Positions 8,661 to 23,695 of a stretch of DNA of 26,445 bases are shown here, piece by piece (positions within the stretch are counted from its first letter, which is position 1; every line of letters begins with the position of its first letter). The notes under the pieces are model-generated. The model was not told where the DNA came from and did not search any database. It was given only the letters and a program-made list of their open reading frames with translations. This DNA comes from a virus, in the UHGV virus genome UHGV-0139945. One strand, 5' to 3'. Made by a program: the position numbers and the translations under genes.

Positions 8661-9380
8661 TTAATCACACTTTTCCGTCCTGAAGTCTTCTATTTCCTCA
8701 TGAAGCTTATATATGCATTGCAACGCGCTGCTATCCATATCGATGAAAGCCATCTTTAACCGTTCCCAATGGCCTGCATACACCCTTTTCCAAGTGGACC
8801 GCTCAACTGAAACCAAACGCGCCAGTGCGGCACCCGCGTAGGCTTTATAGGTCTCATTATTGCGGGTAGCCGCAACTTCTTGTGCCGCCAGCCAGACCAG
8901 CCCTACCAGCTTTTTAATCACTCGCGATTGTAGCGGCTTGCTTATTTGGTAGTTCTGGTATTCAGTCCAGACGTGCTGGCACATTAATGTTTGATAATGG
9001 AAGTTTAGATCGAAGCCATAGCAATAGCGCACCCACGCTTGCTGGTAGGCTTCCAGTTGATTCACTGCACGGCGCCACGGCGAATAACCGAACTCAATAT
9101 CGTTAATGGGTGGCATTGGTCGGCGGCGGCTTCGGGTCTCCATCACATAAACTGGAGTAGTCAGTGCCTTAACCACCGACGGGCCACAACCAATTCCCCC
9201 ATCCAGATCGACAAAATGGCGAGAGTACCGCGGATTTTTATTCTTATCTGCTGGTGGGTTCTCGCTGAATGCCTCGAGTTGTCCCTTTGTTGTGCCGGAT
9301 AGATCCAACAACGCTCGACGAACTTCAATACGGGTATATTCCAGATTTTGTAGGTTCATACTGCTCAGTGCTCCATACAC
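8661..9380 (-). CDS. Putative late-gene antiterminator Q (QuuQ / Q82-family-like), 239 aa
   Basis: Positional call: last gene before the terminator and late operon, and immediately downstream of a DUF968-like gene as in E. coli Qin ydfU-quuQ (recollection). ORF-track start is GTG at 9380; ATG at 9359 (MNLQNLEY...) is an alternative. Confidence 0.5.
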   Translation of the reverse strand: MYGALSSMNLQNLEYTRIEVRRALLDLSGTTKGQLEAFSENPPADKNKNPRYSRHFVDLDGGIGCGPSVVKALTTPVYVMETRSRRRPMPPINDIEFGYSPWRRAVNQLEAYQQAWVRYCYGFDLNFHYQTLMCQHVWTEYQNYQISKPLQSRVIKKLVGLVWLAAQEVAATRNNETYKAYAGAALARLVSVERSTWKRVYAGHWERLKMAFIDMDSSALQCIYKLHEEIEDFRTEKCD

Positions 9381-10442
9381 TTATGATTTCACAATCACGC
9401 CGATCGCTATGGCTCTATCAAGAAAACGGAACAGCAGCTGCAGCTGTGAGCCGTTTTTCTCTTCAAACGCATTTACGTCGGCATGTAGCTCGTCGTGACA
9501 CTCTCTGCACAGAGGGAACACGAAGAGATCGTGGGCTTTGGTTGCGGTACCGCCCATGCCATGCCCGATAACATGATGCGGATCGTCGGCAGGTCGGCGA
9601 CAACATTCACATGGCTGACGTTTTACCCAGTCGGTGTAGGTCTTGTTAACCCAGCGGCGGCGCTTAGGTTTCAACATAAAGGATTCAGGTGATTCCGGGT
9701 CAACGGCCAGCGCCAACACCTTCGGCAGCTTCGGTAACGCCTGCACGTTTTCGTTGGACCAGCATTTCTGTATTAATCTTGCTGTTGGCAACCTCTCCTG
9801 CAGAATGCTGGTGGCTGGTACTGAAGGAACAATGTCGCTTTCTTTATATACAGATTGAAACGGCTCAGCAGGAAGGCGCAGGCCACGCTGCGCCATTGTC
9901 TCTGTGATAGCGTCTGCTGCACCGGCATATACAGCCCACCAGCATAGCTCCGCCAGCGATAGTTCCCGCTCCCGGCCCAGTTGCAGATTCTGCAGGGCAG
10001 TATCGATTATCCAGTTGATAACGTTTCGGCGCGCCAGCTCACTGAGTGTGTCGGTGGTCTGCTCACGAAGGAGGTTTTCACAATGCCAGCAGAGCATGAT
10101 AGCGCCGGGTGGATGGCGCATGCTTAAATGCTCATGATGATGATATTCAGAATGCGGATACTGGCATTCCCGGATGTTCTGCCGAAGCCAGTACTCAAGC
10201 CCCTGCAGACCTCCAGCAGCATTGATGACTTTCTCGCTGGTGAAAAAGGCTTCCAGTGCCTTATCTTCAGCCAGCGGCTGGCGCGCGTCAGGGATTCGGC
10301 CGGTCGCCAGCCCTGCCATGCTTTTTGGCTCAGACTCCACCAGCACCCTACCGCTGCGGAAAAGACGCATCAGCTCCTTTCCTGGCTTAAGCAGTACCAC
10401 GCCTAAGCGCGGCACAACTTCAGGAGTAAGCAGAGCTCTCAT
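9381..10442 (-). CDS. DUF968-like nin-region protein with Cys/His-rich C-terminus, 353 aa
   Basis: C-terminal CECCRRPADDPHHVIGHGMGGTATKAHDLFVFPLCRECHDELHAD looks like a zinc/HNH-type motif; size and position resemble E. coli YdfU (recollection); start overlaps C5 MTase stop (10439-10442). Confidence 0.6.
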   Translation of the reverse strand: MRALLTPEVVPRLGVVLLKPGKELMRLFRSGRVLVESEPKSMAGLATGRIPDARQPLAEDKALEAFFTSEKVINAAGGLQGLEYWLRQNIRECQYPHSEYHHHEHLSMRHPPGAIMLCWHCENLLREQTTDTLSELARRNVINWIIDTALQNLQLGRERELSLAELCWWAVYAGAADAITETMAQRGLRLPAEPFQSVYKESDIVPSVPATSILQERLPTARLIQKCWSNENVQALPKLPKVLALAVDPESPESFMLKPKRRRWVNKTYTDWVKRQPCECCRRPADDPHHVIGHGMGGTATKAHDLFVFPLCRECHDELHADVNAFEEKNGSQLQLLFRFLDRAIAIGVIVKS

Positions 10443-12409
10443 GCAACCTCCCTCTGCTCAGGAATACACATTTCCGGTAGGTTTGCCCTTACCAGAGCTT
10501 CAGCGAACGGCGGTGGGACGGCGTTGCCGCACCTAGCGACTTGTTTGTCTTTGGCGTAACGGTTGCCGCGGTAATCCTGATCGATGATGTAGCCCGCAGG
10601 AAAACCTTGCGCCCTGTACAGCTCGTGCGGCTGTAACATCCGCATGCCAATATCGACGATCTGATATTCAACCCCCTCAACCGTTACCAGACCAAAACGA
10701 TCGTTAGTGGTGACAGTTCCCAGCGGCTCATCCAGCGATACACCGCTTTTTTCGTTCCCGTAATACTTCATCAGGAAAGCTCGTACTTCCCCGACATGCT
10801 GACCGCCGGCGGTAATTGTTGGCACAGGTTCGTCAACTCTGCGACCGTCCTTGCAGGTGCCGCGAAGATGAACGAGGTGTGAAGTCACCATCGCCGCATC
10901 AGCTTTTGTTGTCAGAGTCTGCAACGGCTCATCAGCATCACGAGGGCGGCTTTGCCCCGCTCGACCACCAACGCCAACAATCTGGGCTGTCACTAAAGCG
11001 TGGTGATCGGTTGTCGTCACTGTGTGAGCAGGCTGATCTATTGCAGCGCCGGGGCCTGTATAATTCCCTCCGAAGTGTTTTGCCAGAAACGTGGTGACCA
11101 GCTGAGATTTACCGCCGCCCCCAGCTGTAATGGTTGCACTCGGCTCGTCGGCACCGTGGCCGACGCTGGCACCGAATTGACGTGCGATCACTGGTGCCAC
11201 TAAACAGGCTCGGGATTGTTTCAGGATGGTGTGGGCTGGCCTGTTGATTGCGCGTGGTTTGGCCTGATACTCACTGCCGCCATTGCCAGCGATGAACGGT
11301 ATCAACGTTGCTTTCACTATCCCTAGTGCATGTCCATTTCCCCCCGGGCGCTGCGAACTTCCCGCGGTAACGGTTGGTAATGGTTCAGTGCATTCCTGCC
11401 CGGTGGCGCCGGTACGAAATTTTGTGACATGTGGCGTCACTACGGCGTATCCGTGAGTTTTGGTAATGGTCTGCAGCGGGCTATCGATATCCTGCCCACG
11501 GAAACAGTCATACGAACTACGGGTGCTGGTGTGATTGCATTTGACGATGAAAGGCGTCGGATTATTCAGCACAAACCGCTCGATTCCGCGCGCAATGCGT
11601 TTCAGCGTGTTTTCTGCAAGCGGCTTTTTACGATCAAAGATGCTTTGGCACGGGATAGACCAGTCGATACATTCAGCTGCTGTACGCCACCCTGCCAGTT
11701 TGCCGCTTTGTACTTCGAGCGATTTGGGATCCCCATGAGTCGGCGCTGGCCAGTGGATAGTTTCACCGTCGCAGCGCATCACCATAAAGAATCTCTTCCT
11801 TATTGTCGGCGCCCCGAAATCACAGGCACGCAACTCGCGATAATCGATGGTATACCCAAGGCCAGATATCAGGGCCTTTGCCTGCTCACTGTCGGGAGGA
11901 ATAGACAGAAACTCGCAGGCTTCGGCCAGCGCGGGGTGATCGACCGGGATCCCCGTAGACAACATCCCGACAAATGCAGCGAAGGTTTCCCCTATGCGTG
12001 TCGGGTCCGGACGTGCCTCATCCTCCAGCAATGGCCCCCACGTCTTGAACTCTTCAACGTTCTCCAGCATTACAACGCGCGGACGCTTCGCCAACGCCCA
12101 GCGGACAACGATCCACGCGAGACCGCGAATCTCTTTCTTCACGGGCTTTGCACCCTTCGCCTTAGAGAAATGCCTACAGTCCGGGCTAAACCACGCCAGG
12201 CCAACCGGATTACCGCCGGTCGCCGCGACCGGGTCAACATCAAATACGGACTCACAATAATGGAGCGTATCTGGATGGTTGGTTTTGTGCATGGCAATAG
12301 CGTTTTCATCATGGTTTATCGCAATATCAACGCTGCGCCCGATCGCCAGCTCAATCCCTGTGGACGCGCCACCGCCACCAGCAAAATTATCGACAATAAT
12401 CTCACGCAT
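10439..12409 (-). CDS. DNA (cytosine-5)-methyltransferase with enlarged repeat-containing variable region, 656 aa
   Basis: Motif I FAGGGG, catalytic Pro-Cys (SPDCRHFS), ENV (VVMLENVEEF), QGFP (motif VIII) and GNAV (motif X); about 7 tandem DEPxxT[IV]T-like repeats between; 8-nt overlap with the upstream MTase gene. Confidence 0.9.
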   Translation of the reverse strand: MREIIVDNFAGGGGASTGIELAIGRSVDIAINHDENAIAMHKTNHPDTLHYCESVFDVDPVAATGGNPVGLAWFSPDCRHFSKAKGAKPVKKEIRGLAWIVVRWALAKRPRVVMLENVEEFKTWGPLLEDEARPDPTRIGETFAAFVGMLSTGIPVDHPALAEACEFLSIPPDSEQAKALISGLGYTIDYRELRACDFGAPTIRKRFFMVMRCDGETIHWPAPTHGDPKSLEVQSGKLAGWRTAAECIDWSIPCQSIFDRKKPLAENTLKRIARGIERFVLNNPTPFIVKCNHTSTRSSYDCFRGQDIDSPLQTITKTHGYAVVTPHVTKFRTGATGQECTEPLPTVTAGSSQRPGGNGHALGIVKATLIPFIAGNGGSEYQAKPRAINRPAHTILKQSRACLVAPVIARQFGASVGHGADEPSATITAGGGGKSQLVTTFLAKHFGGNYTGPGAAIDQPAHTVTTTDHHALVTAQIVGVGGRAGQSRPRDADEPLQTLTTKADAAMVTSHLVHLRGTCKDGRRVDEPVPTITAGGQHVGEVRAFLMKYYGNEKSGVSLDEPLGTVTTNDRFGLVTVEGVEYQIVDIGMRMLQPHELYRAQGFPAGYIIDQDYRGNRYAKDKQVARCGNAVPPPFAEALVRANLPEMCIPEQREVA

Positions 12410-13301
12410 GAGCGGCCCCCTGCATACTCCCTACCAGGCCACCAGCAACGGTGATGATCTCGCTGGTGGGCATGCGCTCCAGCCACAACTGGTTAATGTG
12501 GGCCTTCAGCTTGTTCTGCTGGGACAATTCCAGATCCTCAGCGCCTTCAACCTGGTTGAACACCAGCCCAACTTCCAGTGGCCATATCCGTGATTCAGCC
12601 TCAGCCAATGCTGCAAATCCAGCTTCGGGGATGATCACTTCAGGAGACTGAGCTGGCGAAGCTGGTGACAGGAATTTTCCTGCTGCAAACTCAGCCAAAG
12701 CCATACTTGCGCGCCCTTTCGCTTCAAGCTCTACACGATCGATATAGCTAAAGTGCTCGCCGCGCCAGGTCTTATCGAATACCACAATGGCCCCGGCAAA
12801 GAAGGCGCTGGTGGGCTTCTGCTTTTCGTCGGCCGGCACAAACCACGTAGGGAGATCGAAACCAATACGACCACGAATAAACATGATGTGATCGGCATAT
12901 TCCGGCCACCATGTTTCACTAGTTGCTGACTTCACGAGGTAAATGTAGCGACCGCCCTTTTCACGCTGCTCGGCGGTGTATTTCATGATATGAGTCATGC
13001 CAGTTATGGCTTGTTTTTTATGGTACTGCGAGCGGCTGTAGGGCGGATTAGCAAAGGCTGCACCGCCGAGTTCTCCTAGGCGACCAGACCAGTCCTGCGT
13101 CAACGCATTATCCTCAGCGGTGTACCATGCCGGGCATTTCGTGTTGCTGTCGTCAGCAAACAGATCCAGAACAAGAGGACCAAATAACGAATTAATTCCC
13201 CAGAACAAAAGATCAGGCGTACGCCACTGATCACCAACTTCTTTCAAATAATGGGACGGCGCAACACGCATTGCTTCCAGCGATTCACAATATGCATTCA
13301 T
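12402..13301 (-). CDS. Phage-type DNA N6-adenine methyltransferase (YfdM/phage Dam-like) with C-terminal extension
   Basis: WRTPDLLF...LDLFADD...AFANPPYSRS pattern typical of the phage N6-adenine MTase family (recollection); ATG at 13301 overlaps the upstream stop (TGATG); track start 13304 is GTG. Confidence 0.75.
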   Translation of the reverse strand: MNAYCESLEAMRVAPSHYLKEVGDQWRTPDLLFWGINSLFGPLVLDLFADDSNTKCPAWYTAEDNALTQDWSGRLGELGGAAFANPPYSRSQYHKKQAITGMTHIMKYTAEQREKGGRYIYLVKSATSETWWPEYADHIMFIRGRIGFDLPTWFVPADEKQKPTSAFFAGAIVVFDKTWRGEHFSYIDRVELEAKGRASMALAEFAAGKFLSPASPAQSPEVIIPEAGFAALAEAESRIWPLEVGLVFNQVEGAEDLELSQQNKLKAHINQLWLERMPTSEIITVAGGLVGSMQGAAHA

Positions 13302-13558
13302 CACGCCAGTACCTCCTGCACTACTTTCTCGACATGCGACACTCGGCCTTCCAGATCTGCAACGCTATCAACAAGCTCATCAACTGCCAGCTGTGCACGA
13401 TGTTTGGCCTGCATCAGTTCACGCAACGCCGGTACCAGTGCTTTTTTAAGCGCGTCCTTTGTGGCCCCCGTTTTTTCCAGCTGTTCGGCACGTTTGAGCA
13501 TGTCTTCAGCCTGGCGGCGCAGTTGTTCAGGGGTTGGTGATATAACCTGCGATTTCAT
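13301..13558 (-). CDS. Hypothetical coiled-coil protein, 85 aa
   Basis: ORF-track ORF; ATGA overlap with replication gene stop at 13555-13558; helical, charged sequence. Confidence 0.45.
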   Translation of the reverse strand: MKSQVISPTPEQLRRQAEDMLKRAEQLEKTGATKDALKKALVPALRELMQAKHRAQLAVDELVDSVADLEGRVSHVEKVVQEVLA

Positions 13559-14433
13559 GAGCGGAATCCTTTTGGAACGGTGTACTTAACGTCTGAGTAA
13601 CTGGATCTGAACGCTGGATCTTCAGCCCCTCCTTTAGCCCATTTCCCGTTTTTCTTCTCCGGGCGCCCGGCCTTGTCCCAGTTACCTGCACGCTTGAGAT
13701 AGCCAGGAAAATTTTTCGGGATGAACAATGTCGTCGGGCGGAGATATTCTTCCTGTTCTGAGTCTTTCCAGTCCTCGTTTTTGTAGTCCACCACCAGCGC
13801 CATTTCTGCAACGGTAAATCCTTCACGGAGACGAGCCCTGATATGTTCAAGCGACGTAGCGCAGACCTGAAAGCGTGAGCCAGTGGTTTGGTTTAGATAG
13901 GTCAGAACCTGTTTTGATAAATCAGTGAGCACCACTTGCGGGTCTGGTTCCGCAGGAACCGGACAAGAGGGTTTAGATCCTACTGATGGATCTGTATTTG
14001 AATTTACTGACGGATCGTGTCCAGTTTCTGGACCCTGAAAACCCTGTTTTTTTGGCTCTTTCGGACATTCAGATTTTGGACGTCCAGCTTCCGAATGTTC
14101 AGATTCTGTACGTCCAGATTTTGGACCCTCATAATGTTCATTTGCAGCCTGACGCAGCTTAGCCACATTCAGGGTGTAGAGGTTGCTGGTACTGCGCTGA
14201 CCGACACGGCGCTCTTTTTTGGTCAGCCAGCCATCTTTAACCAGCTCGCCGATCAAAGTGATAACTGTGCTACGTCCGGCACCGAGCTGGCGCGCAATCG
14301 TCGCAACGCTTGGATATGCGATCCCCTCATCGCTGGCATAATCAGCCAGGCGAAGCATGATCAGTAATTTATTGCCTTTGATGCCTGCCGCAGCGCAACC
14401 ATCCCAGACATATGCGGATAATTTAACGCTCAC
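13555..14433 (-). CDS. Replication initiator / replisome organiser (lambda O-like: N-terminal winged HTH, low-complexity linker, conserved C-terminal domain)
   Basis: Start assigned to GTG at 14433 (AGAGGATAGG upstream, GTGA overlap with the preceding small ORF); HTH-like LLIMLRLADYASDEGIAYPSVATIARQLGAGRSTV; iteron-like DNA repeats inside the linker-coding region. Confidence 0.7.
   Translation of the reverse strand: MSVKLSAYVWDGCAAAGIKGNKLLIMLRLADYASDEGIAYPSVATIARQLGAGRSTVITLIGELVKDGWLTKKERRVGQRSTSNLYTLNVAKLRQAANEHYEGPKSGRTESEHSEAGRPKSECPKEPKKQGFQGPETGHDPSVNSNTDPSVGSKPSCPVPAEPDPQVVLTDLSKQVLTYLNQTTGSRFQVCATSLEHIRARLREGFTVAEMALVVDYKNEDWKDSEQEEYLRPTTLFIPKNFPGYLKRAGNWDKAGRPEKKNGKWAKGGAEDPAFRSSYSDVKYTVPKGFRS
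14019..14134. repeat. Iteron-like repeat cluster inside the replication gene (putative origin)
   Basis: Palindrome GTCCAGTTTCTGGAC (14019-14033); direct repeats TTCAGATTTTGGACGTCCAG (14068-14087) and TTCAGATTCTGTACGTCCAG (14098-14117); further TGGACCCT units. Confidence 0.45.
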
Positions 14434-14609
14434 TTGCCTATCCTCTTGAATCTGGAACGAAAGATAATCTTCGGGGCAGCACATTCCCACTCATAGCCTG
14501 GGCGACGGTAGATCACGCGCTGGCGATCATCGTCATAACCAATGACATGCACGACGATGCCATGCTGATCACGGTAGTATTGGTCGAGGGACCGGATATT
14601 TTCTTCCAT
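14430..14609 (-). CDS. Small hypothetical protein, 59 aa (not in ORF track)
   Basis: ATG at 14609 preceded by GGGAGG; stop overlaps GTG start of the replication gene (GTGA) and start abuts antirepressor stop; product MEENIRSLDQYYRDQHGIVVHVIGYDDDRQRVIYRRPGYEWECAAPKIIFRSRFKRIGK. Confidence 0.4.
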   Translation of the reverse strand: MEENIRSLDQYYRDQHGIVVHVIGYDDDRQRVIYRRPGYEWECAAPKIIFRSRFKRIGK

Positions 14610-14610
14610 A

Positions 14611-15330
14611 TCAACCTCCCATCAGCTCAGAGGCGTAGCGCTGCGCAATCCACTGGACGCCGCGGGGTGTAACTCGGGTTTGGGTATAGGCATGACCAAA
14701 ATCTGAAGTGCCAGTTTTGACGGTAAACAAACCTTCGCGCTGGCGCAGGGCATGAGGGAGCAAATTGCCGGACTGACGAAAAAGCACCTTGTCACGCAAT
14801 AGCGTGTCGATCATGGCCTTTTCCGGCATGTTCAGGATTTTCGCTGTTTCACGCAGGCTTTTGGCGCCGCCGGCTTCAACGTATTGATTGACGAACGCGA
14901 CTTTCGGAGCATCCTGTTGGACCTTGTGAGACAGGCGCGCATTCTGCTCAGCCATATCGGCGGCCAGACGAAGCGCCTCCGGTAGCGTTTGTGGGATAGC
15001 ATTAGCGCTATCTTCCAACTCACGCAGGCGACGGATAATCTTCATGCGAAGTACCGCGCTGTAACCAGTGATCAGGCATTCGGTATGCTCACGATCGAGG
15101 CGATACTCGCGGTACTTCTGGCCGTTCTGGGGGTGTGTCCAAAGTTGGATATACCCCTCCGGGCTCTCTCCTAACTGTTTCAGCATCGCCTCAATATCCC
15201 GGCAAACATGCCCATGCTGCTTTTCAGTCAGCTCAGCAATCTCACGGCTGCTCATGGTTACGCTGCTAGCAGTAAAGGCAGGGACAGAAGCAACTGATGA
15301 AACCGGGAGATTATTTATCCATTGCGCCAT
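14611..15330 (-). CDS. Phage regulatory protein Rha / antirepressor with KilAC-type C-terminal domain, 240 aa
   Basis: Start set at ATG 15330 (GAGGAGGT upstream); Rha-like MSSREIAELTEKQHGHVCRDIEAMLKQL and antirepressor-like C-terminus (KVAFVNQYVEAGGAKSLRETAKILNMPEK...). Confidence 0.75.
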   Translation of the reverse strand: MAQWINNLPVSSVASVPAFTASSVTMSSREIAELTEKQHGHVCRDIEAMLKQLGESPEGYIQLWTHPQNGQKYREYRLDREHTECLITGYSAVLRMKIIRRLRELEDSANAIPQTLPEALRLAADMAEQNARLSHKVQQDAPKVAFVNQYVEAGGAKSLRETAKILNMPEKAMIDTLLRDKVLFRQSGNLLPHALRQREGLFTVKTGTSDFGHAYTQTRVTPRGVQWIAQRYASELMGG

Positions 15331-15508
15331 TGTGCTTACCTCCTCGTGCAATGAAGTCACCCACAGCCCACTCTGTAAAACTGTGGTTAACCTGGGCCCA
15401 TCCACCCGGTATTCTTACGGCATAGCAAAACGCAATAACGCTTTTACCACCGCGAACTGGTAACGCGCGAAGTTGCGATCGCTGATTATTTGCGGTTAAA
15501 TTGCTCAT
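15311..15508 (-). CDS. Small hypothetical protein, 65 aa
   Basis: ATG at 15508 overlaps the upstream stop (ATGA) with GGAG upstream; overlaps the antirepressor start by about 20 nt; no motif recognised. Confidence 0.3.
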   Translation of the reverse strand: MSNLTANNQRSQLRALPVRGGKSVIAFCYAVRIPGGWAQVNHSFTEWAVGDFIARGGKHNGAMDK

Positions 15509-16062
15509 GCGGATTTCTCCATACACATTGATTTATTCGCCACGACGCCCGGAGCTGCACACTCGCGGGCGTCACTATTTTCTGGCAGGCAATAAACACG
15601 AGAAATCAGGTTGAGAAACGTCATCAGCGTGACCCTGAACTGGTAGGCGATATCATTCAGACTTTGCCACTCGCCGTGTGTAACCACCCCATCATCGATA
15701 TATTCCCGATAAGCGCTGACCAGCTCGCCGAGCTGTCCCACCAGCTCCGCCAGCTTCAAACCAATCTCTTCGTTCTCGTCTTCATGAGCTGCACCAGATA
15801 CATGGATCCCGTTGTCGGTTTCACGTGAAAAAACATCGGCGATGTAGCTAACACCTGCTGCCTTCTGCAGGACCATTGCCCAGCCCATAGGGAATATCTG
15901 ATCTCCACCAGCACGCAGCCGGTTAAAGATCGCGTCCTGGGTGGTATCCAGAATCTCAGCTGCTTCGATATAGCCACCAGGTAATGCGGCTATTGTTTTA
16001 CGGATTGCTGCCACCAGCCACGCGGGCTGTTTTTCTACTTTCCAGGTTGGTTCATTACCCAC
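15505..16062 (-). CDS. Putative CII-like early regulator, 185 aa
   Basis: First gene after cro; GTG start at 16062 with AAGGGG upstream; weak resemblance to the CII (CP76-type) family (recollection). Confidence 0.45.
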   Translation of the reverse strand: MGNEPTWKVEKQPAWLVAAIRKTIAALPGGYIEAAEILDTTQDAIFNRLRAGGDQIFPMGWAMVLQKAAGVSYIADVFSRETDNGIHVSGAAHEDENEEIGLKLAELVGQLGELVSAYREYIDDGVVTHGEWQSLNDIAYQFRVTLMTFLNLISRVYCLPENSDARECAAPGVVANKSMCMEKSA

Positions 16063-16090: not shown

Positions 16091-16300
16091 TCAAACTTTT
16101 TGTTCTTTAAGCTTGCTATACAGCTCCGGTTGGAAAACAAGTTTCCCATCGGTGCGGTACGCAGCTTCAGCAGCCCTCCCTTTTGGGATCAAGCGACCGG
16201 GTCTGTTCCGCCACTGATAAACAGCTTCGCTGGATATGCCAAAGAACTCGGCTACCTTCTCAGCGTTTCCAAAGTACTTTTCAACTTCATCGGTGGTCAT
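16091..16300 (-). CDS. Cro / YdaS-like HTH regulator, 69 aa
   Basis: Pattern AEKVAEFFGISSEAVYQWRNRPGRLIPKGRAAEAAYRTDGKL matches YdaS/Cro-like HTH proteins (recollection); strong RBS AAAGGAG; divergent from the repressor gene. Confidence 0.7.
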   Translation of the reverse strand: MTTDEVEKYFGNAEKVAEFFGISSEAVYQWRNRPGRLIPKGRAAEAAYRTDGKLVFQPELYSKLKEQKV

Positions 16301-16400: not shown

Positions 16401-17027
16401 ATGGAAACTGTCGGACAACGAATAAAATCGCTTAGGCGAATCACCAGAACCTCACAAAAAGAGCTTGGGAAGTTTTGTGGGGTCAGTGATGTCGCAGTTG
16501 GGTATTGGGAAAAGGATGTAAACGTCCCAGGAGGGGAGTCTCTTTCCAAACTAGCAAAATTCTTCAATACATCAATTGATTACATACTTTTTGGCACTGA
16601 GTTTGAGGGAAACTTAATAACTAAGATGCGAAAAGTTCCCGTGATATCGTGGGTGCAGGCAGGATTATTCACAGAATCAAAGCCTGAAGATGTCTTGCAT
16701 AATGCCGAAAAATGGGTGGAAACGTCTCTCCGCATCAGCGATAACTCGTTTGCCCTTGAAGTAAAGGGAGACTCAATGACAAATCCTAATGGACTGCCCA
16801 CGATTCCTGAGGGCGCAACGGTCATCGTTGATCCAGACATTGAGCCAATTCATGGAAAGATTGTAGTTGCACGAATAGATGGGACCAACGAGGCCACGGT
16901 CAAAAAACTGGTTGTAGACGGTCCGCAAAAATTTCTTGTCCCGCTAAATCCCCGTTATCCGAACATCGCCATCAATGGTAACTGCGTCATTATTGGTGTG
17001 GTTAAAGGCGTTCAATACGAGCTCTGA
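16401..17027 (+). CDS. CI-type prophage repressor (HTH_XRE + S24 LexA-like peptidase), 208 aa
   Basis: N-terminal HTH (QKELGKFCGVSDVAVGYWEKDVNVPGGESLSKLAKFF) and C-terminal S24 domain with GDSM serine and a downstream lysine (TVKKL). Confidence 0.9.
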   Translation: METVGQRIKSLRRITRTSQKELGKFCGVSDVAVGYWEKDVNVPGGESLSKLAKFFNTSIDYILFGTEFEGNLITKMRKVPVISWVQAGLFTESKPEDVLHNAEKWVETSLRISDNSFALEVKGDSMTNPNGLPTIPEGATVIVDPDIEPIHGKIVVARIDGTNEATVKKLVVDGPQKFLVPLNPRYPNIAINGNCVIIGVVKGVQYEL

Positions 17028-17079
17028 TCTAAGCTAATCTACCTTCGACACCAAGCTAAGAAAAGTTTGGTGTTTTTCC

Positions 17080-17108
17080 TTGACGATAAAACTAAGTTAA
17101 GTTAGATT
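17080..17108 (+). promoter_or_regulatory. pL-like early promoter overlapped by an operator
   Basis: -35 TTGACG (17080-17085), 17-bp spacer, -10 TAGATT (17103-17108); operator-like CTAAGTTAAGTTAG (17092-17105) overlaps spacer and -10. Confidence 0.45.
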
Positions 17109-18088
17109 TTCATCTATCAACAGCGAACAGGCAGGACGCCCACGAAGTAGCCGCCGGTGGCGTATGAATGACCGGATGATTCGCTGACAGATGTCTTCGG
17201 GAGGGGTAACAGAGAAGCGGTTTGATTACCCGCAACTCGTAGTCAAATTCCTATAGCTGGTGGCGATACCCAAGCCAGGAATACCGAAAACCAGCAGGAG
17301 TGTTAAGGATAAGGGCTAATCACTCCCTTAGCACCCCGCCCGAAGATATCTGAAGAACATGGCGAAAGCCTACAGCGTTGAAGGCGATTTTCTCGGTTTG
17401 CGCGCTAAACAATAGCGGGGGTGAAACCGGGGCGGAGAAGCAGAATCCGCGATGTCGGGACTTGATACTTCCGGCCATACCAACAAGCCGAATGATCGCG
17501 TAACGGTCCTTTGCATCTGCCCCGGCGAGGTGGCGCCGCCGGACCGGGGTAGATGAATCGAACACAACATGAAAGCGCATTCCATCTTCATCCGTCGTGG
17601 GGACTGGTTTGTAACTGTAGGGGTGCGCTTCCAGTTGTGAGCGGCAATATTCACAACCGTTGTATGGCACATGCAGCGTTAGCAGCCCGGATGGTTCCCT
17701 TGAAGTTCCATGCGCTATCCGGATAACTGGAATGTGCAAGCCAGGTGTTTCAGGCACGACGTGCGCCCCACCAGCGCGGCGAAAAGGTGTGACGCCCGGG
17801 AATAGTCCGGGACACAACGATGAGGGCATTGACGAGCAAGGCACAGAGTCTGGTTCGATTCCAGACGCCAGGATAGTTCTATATCTGGTGATGGGCAGGG
17901 AAAAGGTCCGTTCGATTCGGACACCGGCAGTGCTCTCTTCGTTGTGGTAATTGCGGCTATGCGCACGTGACGAGCCAAACCCGTTCAATGAATGCGTTTC
18001 CGGGCAGTGTACGTCGTCGGTTATGGCTTAACCCGGCAGGTGGAGGCACCACCGCCACAACCTAGTTAACTGTGCTGTGTGTAGTCTT

Positions 18089-18158
18089 GGCGGTTATCCA
18101 GTTTTCCACTATCCAAAGGAGGAAGAGGATAACGTTCTGATGGATAACCGCCCTTTTT
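18089..18158 (+). terminator. Large hairpin with T-tract (terminator-like) upstream of the early-left operon
   Basis: Perfect 12-bp inverted repeat GGCGGTTATCCA (18089-18100) / TGGATAACCGCC (18141-18152) followed by CTTTTT; about 40-nt loop with nested TATCC...GGATA pairing. Confidence 0.4.
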
Positions 18159-18297
18159 ACACAATACACAAGAGCATCACCGGGCGACGGGCTCATTACC
18201 CAATCCACCCGGGCGGCTTCTCAACCGCAGGTGCTCTTCTGTGTTGTGTACGGAGAAATTCCCGGCGGTGGCAGCCGCCTTTCGAGAGGGTAAAACC

Positions 18298-22311: not shown

Positions 22312-22511
22312 GCCTCGATTGTGTTCCCATCTCAACTTATTGCAAAGAGACTGGCGAAACCCCTGATGCCATAAATAAGCGCATCCAGCGCGGCGTATGG
22401 CGTGAAGGGGTACAGGTGCTAAAGGTCGAAGGCGTTAAGGAAAGATGGATAGATCTTAGTGAGGTTGCAAAATGGGCTCGACAAAATCGCCTAAACTCCC
22501 GCGCGGCGTAA
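22293..22511 (+). CDS. Excisionase (Xis-like DNA-binding protein), 72 aa
   Basis: Small basic protein just upstream of int and overlapping it by 40 nt; winged-helix-like DAINKRIQRGVWREGVQVLKVEGVKERWIDLSEVAKW; ATG at 22305 is an alternative start. Confidence 0.65.
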   Translation: MEKSMLSLDCVPISTYCKETGETPDAINKRIQRGVWREGVQVLKVEGVKERWIDLSEVAKWARQNRLNSRAA

Positions 22512-23638
22512 CCATCAGGAAACATAGCAACGGAGAAACTATCAATATTACTTTTACATATAAGGGAGTTAAGTGCCGTGAACCCCTTTCTAATCTGGAA
22601 GTTTCTTCGAAAAACATTAAATATGCTGAGCGAACACTCGGAGAAATTCATAACAAAATCGAAAGAGGAACGTTTGTTTATGCAGAATACTTCCCCCGTT
22701 CTACCCGGTTAAAAATCTTTGGGAATGCTGCCTCCGGCAAAACGGTGAAAATGTATCTAGATGAATATCTTGTGATTTGCGAAACGAGGAAGTTATCCCC
22801 TTCAACGATCGGCGGCTACAAAAAATGCCGTAGCGCATTGTCATCGCTTCACGTTTTTCCCGCAAGTGAGTTAACGCCGGCTGCATTGAAGGCATGGATC
22901 CAAGATCAGAAAACGACCTTGAAGACCATCCGAAACCAACTTTCTTTCCTGCGCTCTGCAATGGATGAAGCGGTAACAGATGGTATTCTCCAGATTAACC
23001 CTGTTTCACTAGTAACAGCCTCACGTTACCAGAGTGACAAATCAGTGTCAGAAAGTAGTTATGTGGTTGACCCGCTATCACCAGCCGAAGTACATGCTTT
23101 GCTCACAGCTGCTGGCAATAAACAATGGGAGAACCTCTTTCGATTCGCCATCCAAACTGGCCTGCGTAGTTCTGAGCTGTGTGCTCTTCGTTGGCGTGAT
23201 ATCGATTTTGTAGGGAAGACAGCCCACGTTCAGAATGCCACCGTAGTTGGCGTAATCAAAGGGACCAAAACAAAAGCTGGAACACGGAAGGTTGAACTAA
23301 CTGACGAAGCAATGCTTGCGTTAGTTAGTCAGAAACCGTTCACTTTTATGAAAGATGATACGATCTTCGAAGATCCAAAAAGTAATAAAGCATGGGCAAG
23401 TGCTGATGCAATAAGAAAAAAAGCGTGGGTACCAACCTTACGAAAGGCAGGCATCCGCTATCGTAATCCATACCAAACCCGGCACACTTTTGCTACCCGT
23501 CACATTAGCCAAGGTGCCAATCTTTTTTGGTTAGCCACACAAATGGGGCATAAAGGACCAGAGATGCTTTTCCGTCACTACGGCTCATATCTGAAGGAAT
23601 ATGATGGACAAACAAGCCTGAAGAAGATAACAATATAA
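22472..23638 (+). CDS. int: Tyrosine recombinase / phage integrase (lambda Int-like), 388 aa
   Basis: Arm-binding-like N-terminus and C-terminal catalytic residues (TRHTFATRH, LATQMGHKGPEMLFRHYGSY); GC falls sharply immediately downstream. Confidence 0.9.
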   Translation: MGSTKSPKLPRGVTIRKHSNGETINITFTYKGVKCREPLSNLEVSSKNIKYAERTLGEIHNKIERGTFVYAEYFPRSTRLKIFGNAASGKTVKMYLDEYLVICETRKLSPSTIGGYKKCRSALSSLHVFPASELTPAALKAWIQDQKTTLKTIRNQLSFLRSAMDEAVTDGILQINPVSLVTASRYQSDKSVSESSYVVDPLSPAEVHALLTAAGNKQWENLFRFAIQTGLRSSELCALRWRDIDFVGKTAHVQNATVVGVIKGTKTKAGTRKVELTDEAMLALVSQKPFTFMKDDTIFEDPKSNKAWASADAIRKKAWVPTLRKAGIRYRNPYQTRHTFATRHISQGANLFWLATQMGHKGPEMLFRHYGSYLKEYDGQTSLKKITI

Positions 23639-23695
23639 TCCATGTCTGAACTATTGGCCACAATTTGTGGCCATTTCATGGAACAAGGTACAAAC

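Follow-up and report, generated by a model that had tools for sequence, protein, structure and literature searches.

A putative replication origin inside the initiator gene of a Klebsiella-type lambdoid prophage

The O initiator of phage lambda joins an origin-binding N-terminal domain to a separate C-terminal domain. Among the replisome organisers of Gram-positive phages, SPP1 G38P binds oriL inside gene 38, and lactococcal phages of the Tuc2009 type have rep-internal origins. In Dam-dependent origins, clusters of GATC lie in the unwinding region, as in the 13-mers of Escherichia coli oriC and the 7-mers of P1 oriR. The lambda origin contains four iterons, which are imperfect inverted repeats in the middle of gene O with an AT-rich tract alongside, and in lambdoid origins extra iterons add residues to the linker of the protein (PMC7466680). 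Here we analysed the virus genome UHGV-0139945, a stretch of 26,445 nucleotides (nt; the window) that as a whole is an integrated lambdoid prophage, and followed up an earlier reading of its sequence (the original prediction) that had noticed iteron-like repeats within the replication initiator gene. Our analysis of the sequence indicates that positions 14126-13976 are probably the vegetative replication origin of this prophage, situated inside the linker-coding DNA of its own initiator.

The locus resembles the origin of lambda, and those of Stx and other lambdoid phages, in several respects. The sites are internal to the initiator gene, where they separate the DNA for its N-terminal DNA-binding domain from that for its C-terminal domain; there are at least four of them (here five) with internal dyad symmetry; the promoter-distal side has an AT-rich tract, although here it is shorter and less AT-rich; and the N-terminal domain and the iterons form a specificity module with exchangeable C-terminal domains. 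The original prediction had likened the locus to lambda gene O, and the likeness holds for the mid-gene position and the inverted-repeat sites but not for the initiator, whose N-terminal domain is HTH_36 (PF13730) and not Phage_rep_O (PF04492), and whose C-terminal domain is Phg_2220_C. Unlike the iterons of lambda, which measure 18-19 base pairs (bp) at 20-24-bp spacing, the units here are 15 bp long and abutting. A fifth site past a 33-bp gap, two or three conserved GATC sites in the AT-rich part, and the lack of a P-type loader gene after the initiator are further differences. Direct homology of the window protein to lambda O was rejected, because BLASTP between the two gave no significant alignment and their domains differ.

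Repeat array and AT-rich block

Every sequence quoted in the original prediction was found where it had been placed. The motif GTCCAGTTTCTGGAC at 14019-14033 is a perfect 6-3-6 palindrome, TTCAGATTTTGGACGTCCAG (14068-14087) and TTCAGATTCTGTACGTCCAG (14098-14117) are identical at 18 of 20 positions and lie 30 bp apart, and TGGACC occurs at 14028-14033 and 14121-14126. The repeats are real, beyond what chance and coding needs would give, but the true repeat unit is not a 20-bp direct repeat; it is a palindrome of 15 bp that reads GTCCAAAATCTGGAC on the minus strand, the strand of the gene. Tandem Repeats Finder reported a period of 15 with 3.4 copies, and a repeat search returned one family with four copies spaced 15 bp.

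Four abutting units form the array at 14067-14126 on the minus strand: unit 1 (GTCCAAAATCTGGAC, 14126-14112), unit 2 (GTACAGAATCTGAAC, 14111-14097), the degenerate unit 3 (ATTCGGAAGCTGGAC, 14096-14082; 4 palindrome mismatches) and unit 4 (GTCCAAAATCTGAAT, 14081-14067). An A-rich gap of 33 bp (14034-14066, minus strand), made up of a decayed unit, GTCCGAAAGAGCC, and an A-rich run, AAAAAAACAGGGTTTTCAGG, separates the array from the distal, fifth unit, the perfect palindrome GTCCAGAAACTGGAC at 14019-14033 on the same strand. Mismatched pairs within the five palindromes number at most 1 in three units (one of them perfect), 3 in one and 4 in one.

This arrangement exceeds what base composition or the encoded peptide would produce. 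Four distinct GTCCAGNNNNTGGAC sites (at most 2 mismatches) lie inside 110 bp; first-order Markov simulations of the window gave at most 2 such sites, and 0 of 1000 reached four. In a synonymous-codon resampling that kept the peptide GPKSGRTESEHSEAGRPKSECPKEPKKQGFQGPETGH fixed and used the prophage's own codon usage (n=20000), unit-to-unit identity was 112 in the observed sequence versus 75.6 +/- 4.6 in the resampled ones, and palindromy was 50 versus 33.1 +/- 3.9; none of the 20000 resamplings reached the observed value in either measure. The constraint acts on the DNA, beyond coding needs. Slippage could yield the identity among repeats, but it cannot yield their palindromy. Elsewhere in the window, unit-like matches at 9339 and 14694 (3 mismatches each) were dismissed as being near chance expectation (~0.65).

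The original prediction had set the limits of the element at 14019-14134 and had expected an AT-rich element just downstream. The units do fall inside these limits, but the element reaches to about 13976. A conserved block at 13976-14016 (GATCCGTCAGTAAATTCAAATACAGATCCATCAGTAGGATC, minus strand), outside those limits and downstream in the direction of the gene, is a candidate unwinding or loading element. This block carries GATC sites at 14016-14013, 13992-13989 and 13979-13976. By 25-bp windows, duplex stability within the gene is lowest in its segment 14011-13980 (~70% AT), a minimum equalled by one stretch near 14383-14356, where the N-terminal domain is encoded. When the family-average stability profile was anchored on the block, the minimum within +/-200 nt was the block itself. 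The block fits the unwinding element that had been expected and may be where the strands separate. Two of its GATC sites form an inverted repeat at 13974-13994 (AGATCCATCAGTAGGATCT), which on the plus strand scores as a terminator-like hairpin with a T-rich run after it; this is seen in the window's clade only.

The initiator and its relatives

The initiator gene spans 13555-14433 on the minus strand, as delimited from the list of open reading frames (ORFs), Pfam, PHROGs and the N-termini of homologues. The listed ORF extends over 13555-14490, but the true start is probably the GTG at 14433 and not the one at 14490, because homologues begin there; the stop codon of DUF4222, the gene upstream, overlaps this GTG. 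Within the 311-residue ORF, HTH_36 matches residues 36-89 (46.1 bits, cut-off 25, E=4e-12) and Phg_2220_C matches residues 195-266 (83.8 bits, cut-off 27, E=9e-24), both domains exceeding their curated cut-offs and standing in N-to-C order. PHROGs returned 'primosomal protein', 'replication initiation protein' and 'replication initiation O-like', together with weak matches to 'DnaD-like helicase loader'. Based on its position and domain content, we regard the gene as the replication initiator of the prophage.

An AlphaFold2 model, built with a 25-sequence alignment, was used to examine the protein. It showed a winged-helix N-terminal domain at residues 9-105 (predicted local distance difference test score, pLDDT, ~80-89) with a helix-turn-helix (H47-54, H58-70) and a beta-hairpin wing (74-77, 89-92), a disordered segment at residues 106-162 (pLDDT 31-41, below 50), and a helical C-terminal domain at residues 169-258 (pLDDT 83-94). 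The winged-helix domain is encoded at 14131-14433 on the minus strand, as supported by AlphaFold2, Foldseek and its covariation with the half-site, and the Phg_2220_C domain, of the DnaD-like or replisome-organiser type, at 13693-13908 on the same strand, as supported by Pfam and AlphaFold2. The DNA coding for the disordered linker is 14130-13960 and coincides with the proposed origin, which bears out the earlier placement of the repeats in the linker-coding part of the gene. Since the repeats encode a disordered linker, protein-level constraint over them is expected to be weak.

Foldseek matched the N-terminal domain best to dimeric winged-helix regulators of the MarR/ArsR type, which bind palindromes, and gave a weak full-length match to DnaD; a weak DnaD_N match to this domain was also found. 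By sequence, none of the solved structures is a close relative; PaaX, GntR and the N-terminal domain of DnaD gave no more than weak matches. We propose that the winged-helix domain is the reader of the repeats, and the Phg_2220_C domain is presumably the contact to the host helicase-loading machinery.

The repeats were then compared across the family. A profile of the N-terminal domain identified 160 loci, of which 80 came from IMG/VR and the other 80 from species-representative genomes, nearly all of these with an Enterobacterales label. The loci comprise 146 distinct homologous genes and 64 representatives at <88% nucleotide identity in the N-terminal domain. All 119 full-length matches among the 120 listed homologues contain both HTH_36 and Phg_2220_C. 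The original prediction had made its reading depend on conservation of the repeats in related phages, and they are conserved: in 145 of the 146 distinct genes the best autocorrelation lag (gene nt 290-400) is 15, 30 or 45 bp. The sole exception is L083, on the E. coli ECDA1023 chromosome, where rep is truncated after ~78 residues and runs into terminase-like sequence; this prophage is probably decayed and has lost its origin by deletion.

Among the 64 representatives, arrays contain 3-10 units, most often 5, and the family consensus unit nnTCA(A/G)A(A/T)TCTGAnn is palindromic. Codon choice in the 330 units of these representatives is almost uniform, with AAA for Lys in 176/176, GAA for Glu in 70/70 and TCA for the first Ser in 269/284; at conserved Lys codons of the N-terminal domain the ratio of AAA to AAG is roughly 48:16, 28:36 and 36:23. 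In a fragment of Klebsiella phage KpnBHU6 that is 93% identical, substitutions within units restore the consensus palindrome: GTACA becomes GTTCA, which makes the arms of that unit perfectly complementary, and AAGCTGGAC becomes AATCTGGAC. YeP1, SfIV, SKA5 and Klebsiella phage 1 LV-2017, with 36-53% protein identity in the N-terminal domain and linker, have repeats of 15-bp period at the same place with the unit CGTCAAAATCTGACG. The gap equivalent to 14034-14066 is also present in relatives, with the starts of the units on either side 33 bp apart. A Tatumella prophage (L008, gene nt 320-600) has an expanded array of ~19 units with a 30-bp super-period.

The outer half-sites of the units fall into three classes, CGTCA...TGACG (the majority), GTTCA...TGAAC and GTCCA...TGGAC (the window's clade), and in the 64 representatives the mirror positions 1/15 and 2/14 of the unit agree more often than in shuffles. 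The predicted recognition helix varies along with them. All 51 representatives with a helix of the form xSTVRT have outer bases of the CGTCA type, and all 9 with RSTVI[TG] have GT[TC]CA, although these counts reflect few independent events, perhaps 2-3 clades, and are weaker than they appear. Wing motifs follow the same division, GNRNASNVYQLN going with the xSTVRT/CG type and GQRS..N.YTLN with the RSTVI[TG]/GT type. Because the independent events are few, we take the covariation as supportive and not decisive. Both half-site types, CG and GT, are joined to both types of C-terminal domain (Phg_2220_C in 45 representatives and the lambda-O type in 15), which indicates that the repeats travel with the N-terminal and not the C-terminal domain. 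Initiators of the SfIV type carry the C-terminal domain of lambda O (E=1e-25), and in phiP27 a DnaC-like helicase loader follows the homologue. This modularity of N- and C-terminal domains matches the modular build of lambda O.

The core of the distal unit, CCAGAATCTGG, is almost constant family-wide whatever the half-site class of the array, and columns at the distal site are at least 90% conserved among the 64 representatives. Nearly invariant across the family are the CCAGAATCTGG distal site and, following it, GATCCGTCAGTAAATTCAAAACAAGATCCATCAG. At conserved residues, codon entropy is 0.39 bits in the block versus 1.45 bits in the N-terminal domain (64 representatives; Mann-Whitney p=5e-4), and many codons of the block are 100% fixed (TCA 58/58, GAA 56/56, TTT 55/55). 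Two GATC sites lie exactly 24 bp apart in 51/64 representatives, and the window has a third. The density of GATC is about 10x background, with a family mean of 1.97 per 47-nt block versus 4.2 per kb overall. Variants of the block were seen in relatives: a Pectobacterium prophage (L079, gene nt 465-540) has the 24-bp GATCC...AAAACAT unit in three full copies, Gilliamella homologues (L081, gene nt 465-520) have a ~40-bp pure AT tract in its place, and minor variants occur in L079, L126 and L151.

These findings suggest an origin of two parts. One is an iteron array, variable and co-evolving with the winged helix, that determines specificity; the other is a constant core. The core would consist of the distal CCAGAATCTGG site and two 24-bp GATCC...AAAACA repeats, essentially without synonymous change, and appears common to hundreds of Enterobacterales prophages whatever their iteron class or C-terminal domain. 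Of the 64 representative loci, 27 have a Dam homologue no more than 2.5 kb from rep. In the window, a phage Dam-type N6-adenine methyltransferase (12402-13304, minus strand; Pfam Dam E=2e-43) is encoded two genes downstream of rep and may methylate the GATC sites of the origin. We also considered, as a speculative and rather doubtful extension, that the constant core is a methylation-gated switch, in which Dam from the host or the phage, perhaps together with SeqA, would set the timing of firing or helicase loading through the paired GATC sites. If this were true, it would account for a Dam gene being so often beside rep.

The origin reading and its alternatives

By analogy with lambda, dimers of the initiator N-terminal domain would bind the four abutting 15-bp palindromes and the distal fifth unit through the half-sites GTCCA and TGGAC, whose centres are 10 bp apart. 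The bound dimers would form a nucleoprotein complex comparable to the O-some of lambda, this complex would destabilise the adjacent AT-rich, GATC-bearing block, and the C-terminal Phg_2220_C domain would bring the helicase-loading machinery of the host to the DNA once it is open. We infer all of these steps, from binding to the units and unwinding at the GATC block to origin firing and the route of helicase recruitment, from the sequence and from this analogy.

Several observations weigh against an origin at this place. The third unit is degenerate, with its 4 palindrome mismatches, and the units abut at 15 bp, much tighter than the spacing in lambda. The AT-rich block is short (~35-40 bp) and only ~70% AT, and the covariation of helix and half-site comes down to few independent events. 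By Pfam and PHROGs, no P-type or other helicase-loader gene follows rep; downstream are an 85-residue protein and then Dam. Finally, no paper on this origin family was found in the open-access literature, even with motif-sequence queries, a search that could have overlooked older papers behind subscriptions; in the genome papers of SfIV and SfI a replication module is mentioned, but no origin.

The family was also compared with other origin types. As in many Staphylococcus, Streptococcus, Bacillus and Lactobacillus phage 'replication initiation' proteins, the initiator has a Phg_2220_C domain, and it shares with DnaD-like Gram-positive initiators the weak DnaD_N match and an origin inside the initiator gene. 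However, by their annotations a DnaC/IstB-like loader usually adjoins the initiator in those phages and none does so in the window, and the sequence and geometry of their repeats are unrelated. Like oriC and P1 oriR, the locus has GATC sites concentrated in the AT-rich, least stable part beside the initiator sites, with a Dam gene nearby; unlike them, its GATC sites are 24 bp apart and thus not separated by whole turns of the helix, a Dam homologue is nearby in only 27/64 loci, and there are no DnaA boxes. We found no DnaA box with 0 mismatches over 13300-14700, and no site resembling that of integration host factor (at most 1 mismatch). An origin of the iteron-plasmid type (Rep_3/RepA, pi or TrfA, with direct 17-22-bp repeats in helical phase, Rep monomers and DnaA boxes) was rejected because the locus has abutting 15-bp palindromes, no DnaA boxes and, by Pfam, no Rep_3 domain.

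A further resemblance to lambda was noticed by eye. To the right of the AT-rich tract of lambda (L006 1160-1185), the sequence CGTCAGAGAATTCTGGCGAATCC looks like the family distal site, CGTCAGAATCTGGCGGGGATCC in SfIV (L002 1890-1915). MAFFT did not place CGTCAGAGAATTCTGG of lambda opposite the distal site of the family, so the resemblance is an unverified visual observation. The family core and the right arm of ori-lambda may nevertheless be related, a possibility raised by the C-terminal domain that SfIV-type initiators share with lambda O.

Among the alternatives, the one that survives best, though we consider it improbable, is that the units are operators through which the initiator autoregulates or roadblocks transcription of rep and downstream genes from inside its own gene, with the origin located elsewhere. 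Operators of dimeric winged-helix proteins are usually inverted repeats, as all the units are, and the fold of the N-terminal domain is like that of MarR/ArsR-type repressors by Foldseek. In iteron plasmids, moreover, inverted repeats are typically autoregulatory. However, operators normally overlap promoters, and no sigma-70-like promoter or other promoter-like site was found in 13300-14700. The presence of 4-10 abutting copies and a constant AT-rich, GATC-bearing block under selection at the DNA level fits an origin better, and the inverted-repeat iterons at the equivalent position of the lambda gene are an origin. The operator and origin roles are also compatible with each other.

Less likely still is that the conserved DNA serves as a recombination linker for exchange of N- and C-terminal domains, or has some other role in cis, for instance as a centromere or in binding a host factor. 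The constant block lies exactly at the junction where C-terminal domains differ (Phg_2220_C, lambda-O type or other), and its conservation is independent of iteron class, as a recombination linker would have it. A recombination linker would not account for the palindromic arrays and their covariation with the DNA-binding domain, and no partition genes are nearby to support a centromere or similar cis site. It is plausible that the block is origin core and junction at once, which makes a linker function an additional role more than an alternative.

We find it very hard to credit that the repeats are a mere by-product of a tandem pentapeptide ([A/P/T]-S-[K/E]-S-[D/G]) born by slippage and without function in the DNA: the 15-bp period does equal 5 codons, 330/330 family units are in one reading frame, unit number varies (3-10, and ~19 in the Tatumella prophage) as slippage produces, and the peptide is predicted to be disordered, but the palindromy within units has no protein-level explanation and was matched in 0/20000 synonymous resamplings, synonymous positions are almost fixed between lineages at <88% nucleotide identity, half-site changes are mirror-symmetric, and the distal unit and GATC block are conserved although they lie outside the tandem array. 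Rfam gave zero matches and ARAGORN zero tRNAs in the whole window, so no support was found for an explanation at the RNA level.

Prophage context and significance

The order cI, cro, cII-like gene, Rha/Ant, DUF4222, rep and Dam matches the early-right operon of lambdoid phages. The cI-like S24 repressor is at 16401-17027, a P22-type Cro at 16091-16300, the gene in cII position at 15505-16062, Rha/Ant at 14611-15405 and DUF4222, directly upstream of the initiator gene, at 14430-14609. Immediately downstream of the initiator gene is the 85-residue gene (13301-13558), to which no function was assigned, and beyond the Dam gene are a C5 methyltransferase (10439-12409), a DUF968 gene listed between it and antiterminator Q, and Q itself (8661-9380). 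The large terminase is at 1382-3490 and the integrase at 22472-23638. The element is of the Klebsiella type, with Klebsiella phage KpnBHU6 and a K. spallanzanii prophage as its nearest relatives, and a near-identity search of E. coli genomes with the rep gene gave no match.

Some features of the window lie apart from the origin. It encodes four DNA methyltransferases in 26 kb, of the N6_N4 (7071-8123), C5, Dam and D12 types; the C5-type protein has 656 residues with its Pfam match in two separate stretches. The D12-class N6-adenine methyltransferase (25509-26390) matches PADLOC PD-Lambda-5_B (E=5e-123), and directly past the integrase is an AAA_15/AAA_21 ATPase of 595 residues with weak PtuA/AriA/GajA-like matches. 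This ATPase and the D12 methyltransferase, which together occupy the prophage end (23642-26390), may be a defence pair of the PD-Lambda-5 type. Beside the cI-like repressor, the region 17030-18200 has no Pfam, PADLOC or Rfam match, and its longest ORF (17320-17988, minus strand) has a translation that is not protein-like.

The lambda arrangement itself is known; here it occurs in a widespread initiator family for which we found no published origin in the open-access literature. The general picture from lambda is unchanged and the result will not surprise a specialist, but it is useful for annotation and engineering. Most of these initiators go under the generic NCBI name 'conserved phage C-terminal domain-containing protein'. 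At the strength argued above, a precise origin location can now be proposed for a large set of prophages and phages of the Enterobacterales, which covers SfII/SfIV, phiP27, phiNP, YeP1, many Klebsiella prophages and a homologue in E. coli Nissle 1917. In these genes two codes would overlap, the sequence of the disordered linker being dictated mainly by function at the DNA level. The code relating helix to half-site (xSTVRT with CGTCA, RSTVIT with GT[TC]CA) could serve for orthogonal phage-derived replicons, and it could predict replication incompatibility or cross-activation of co-resident prophages.

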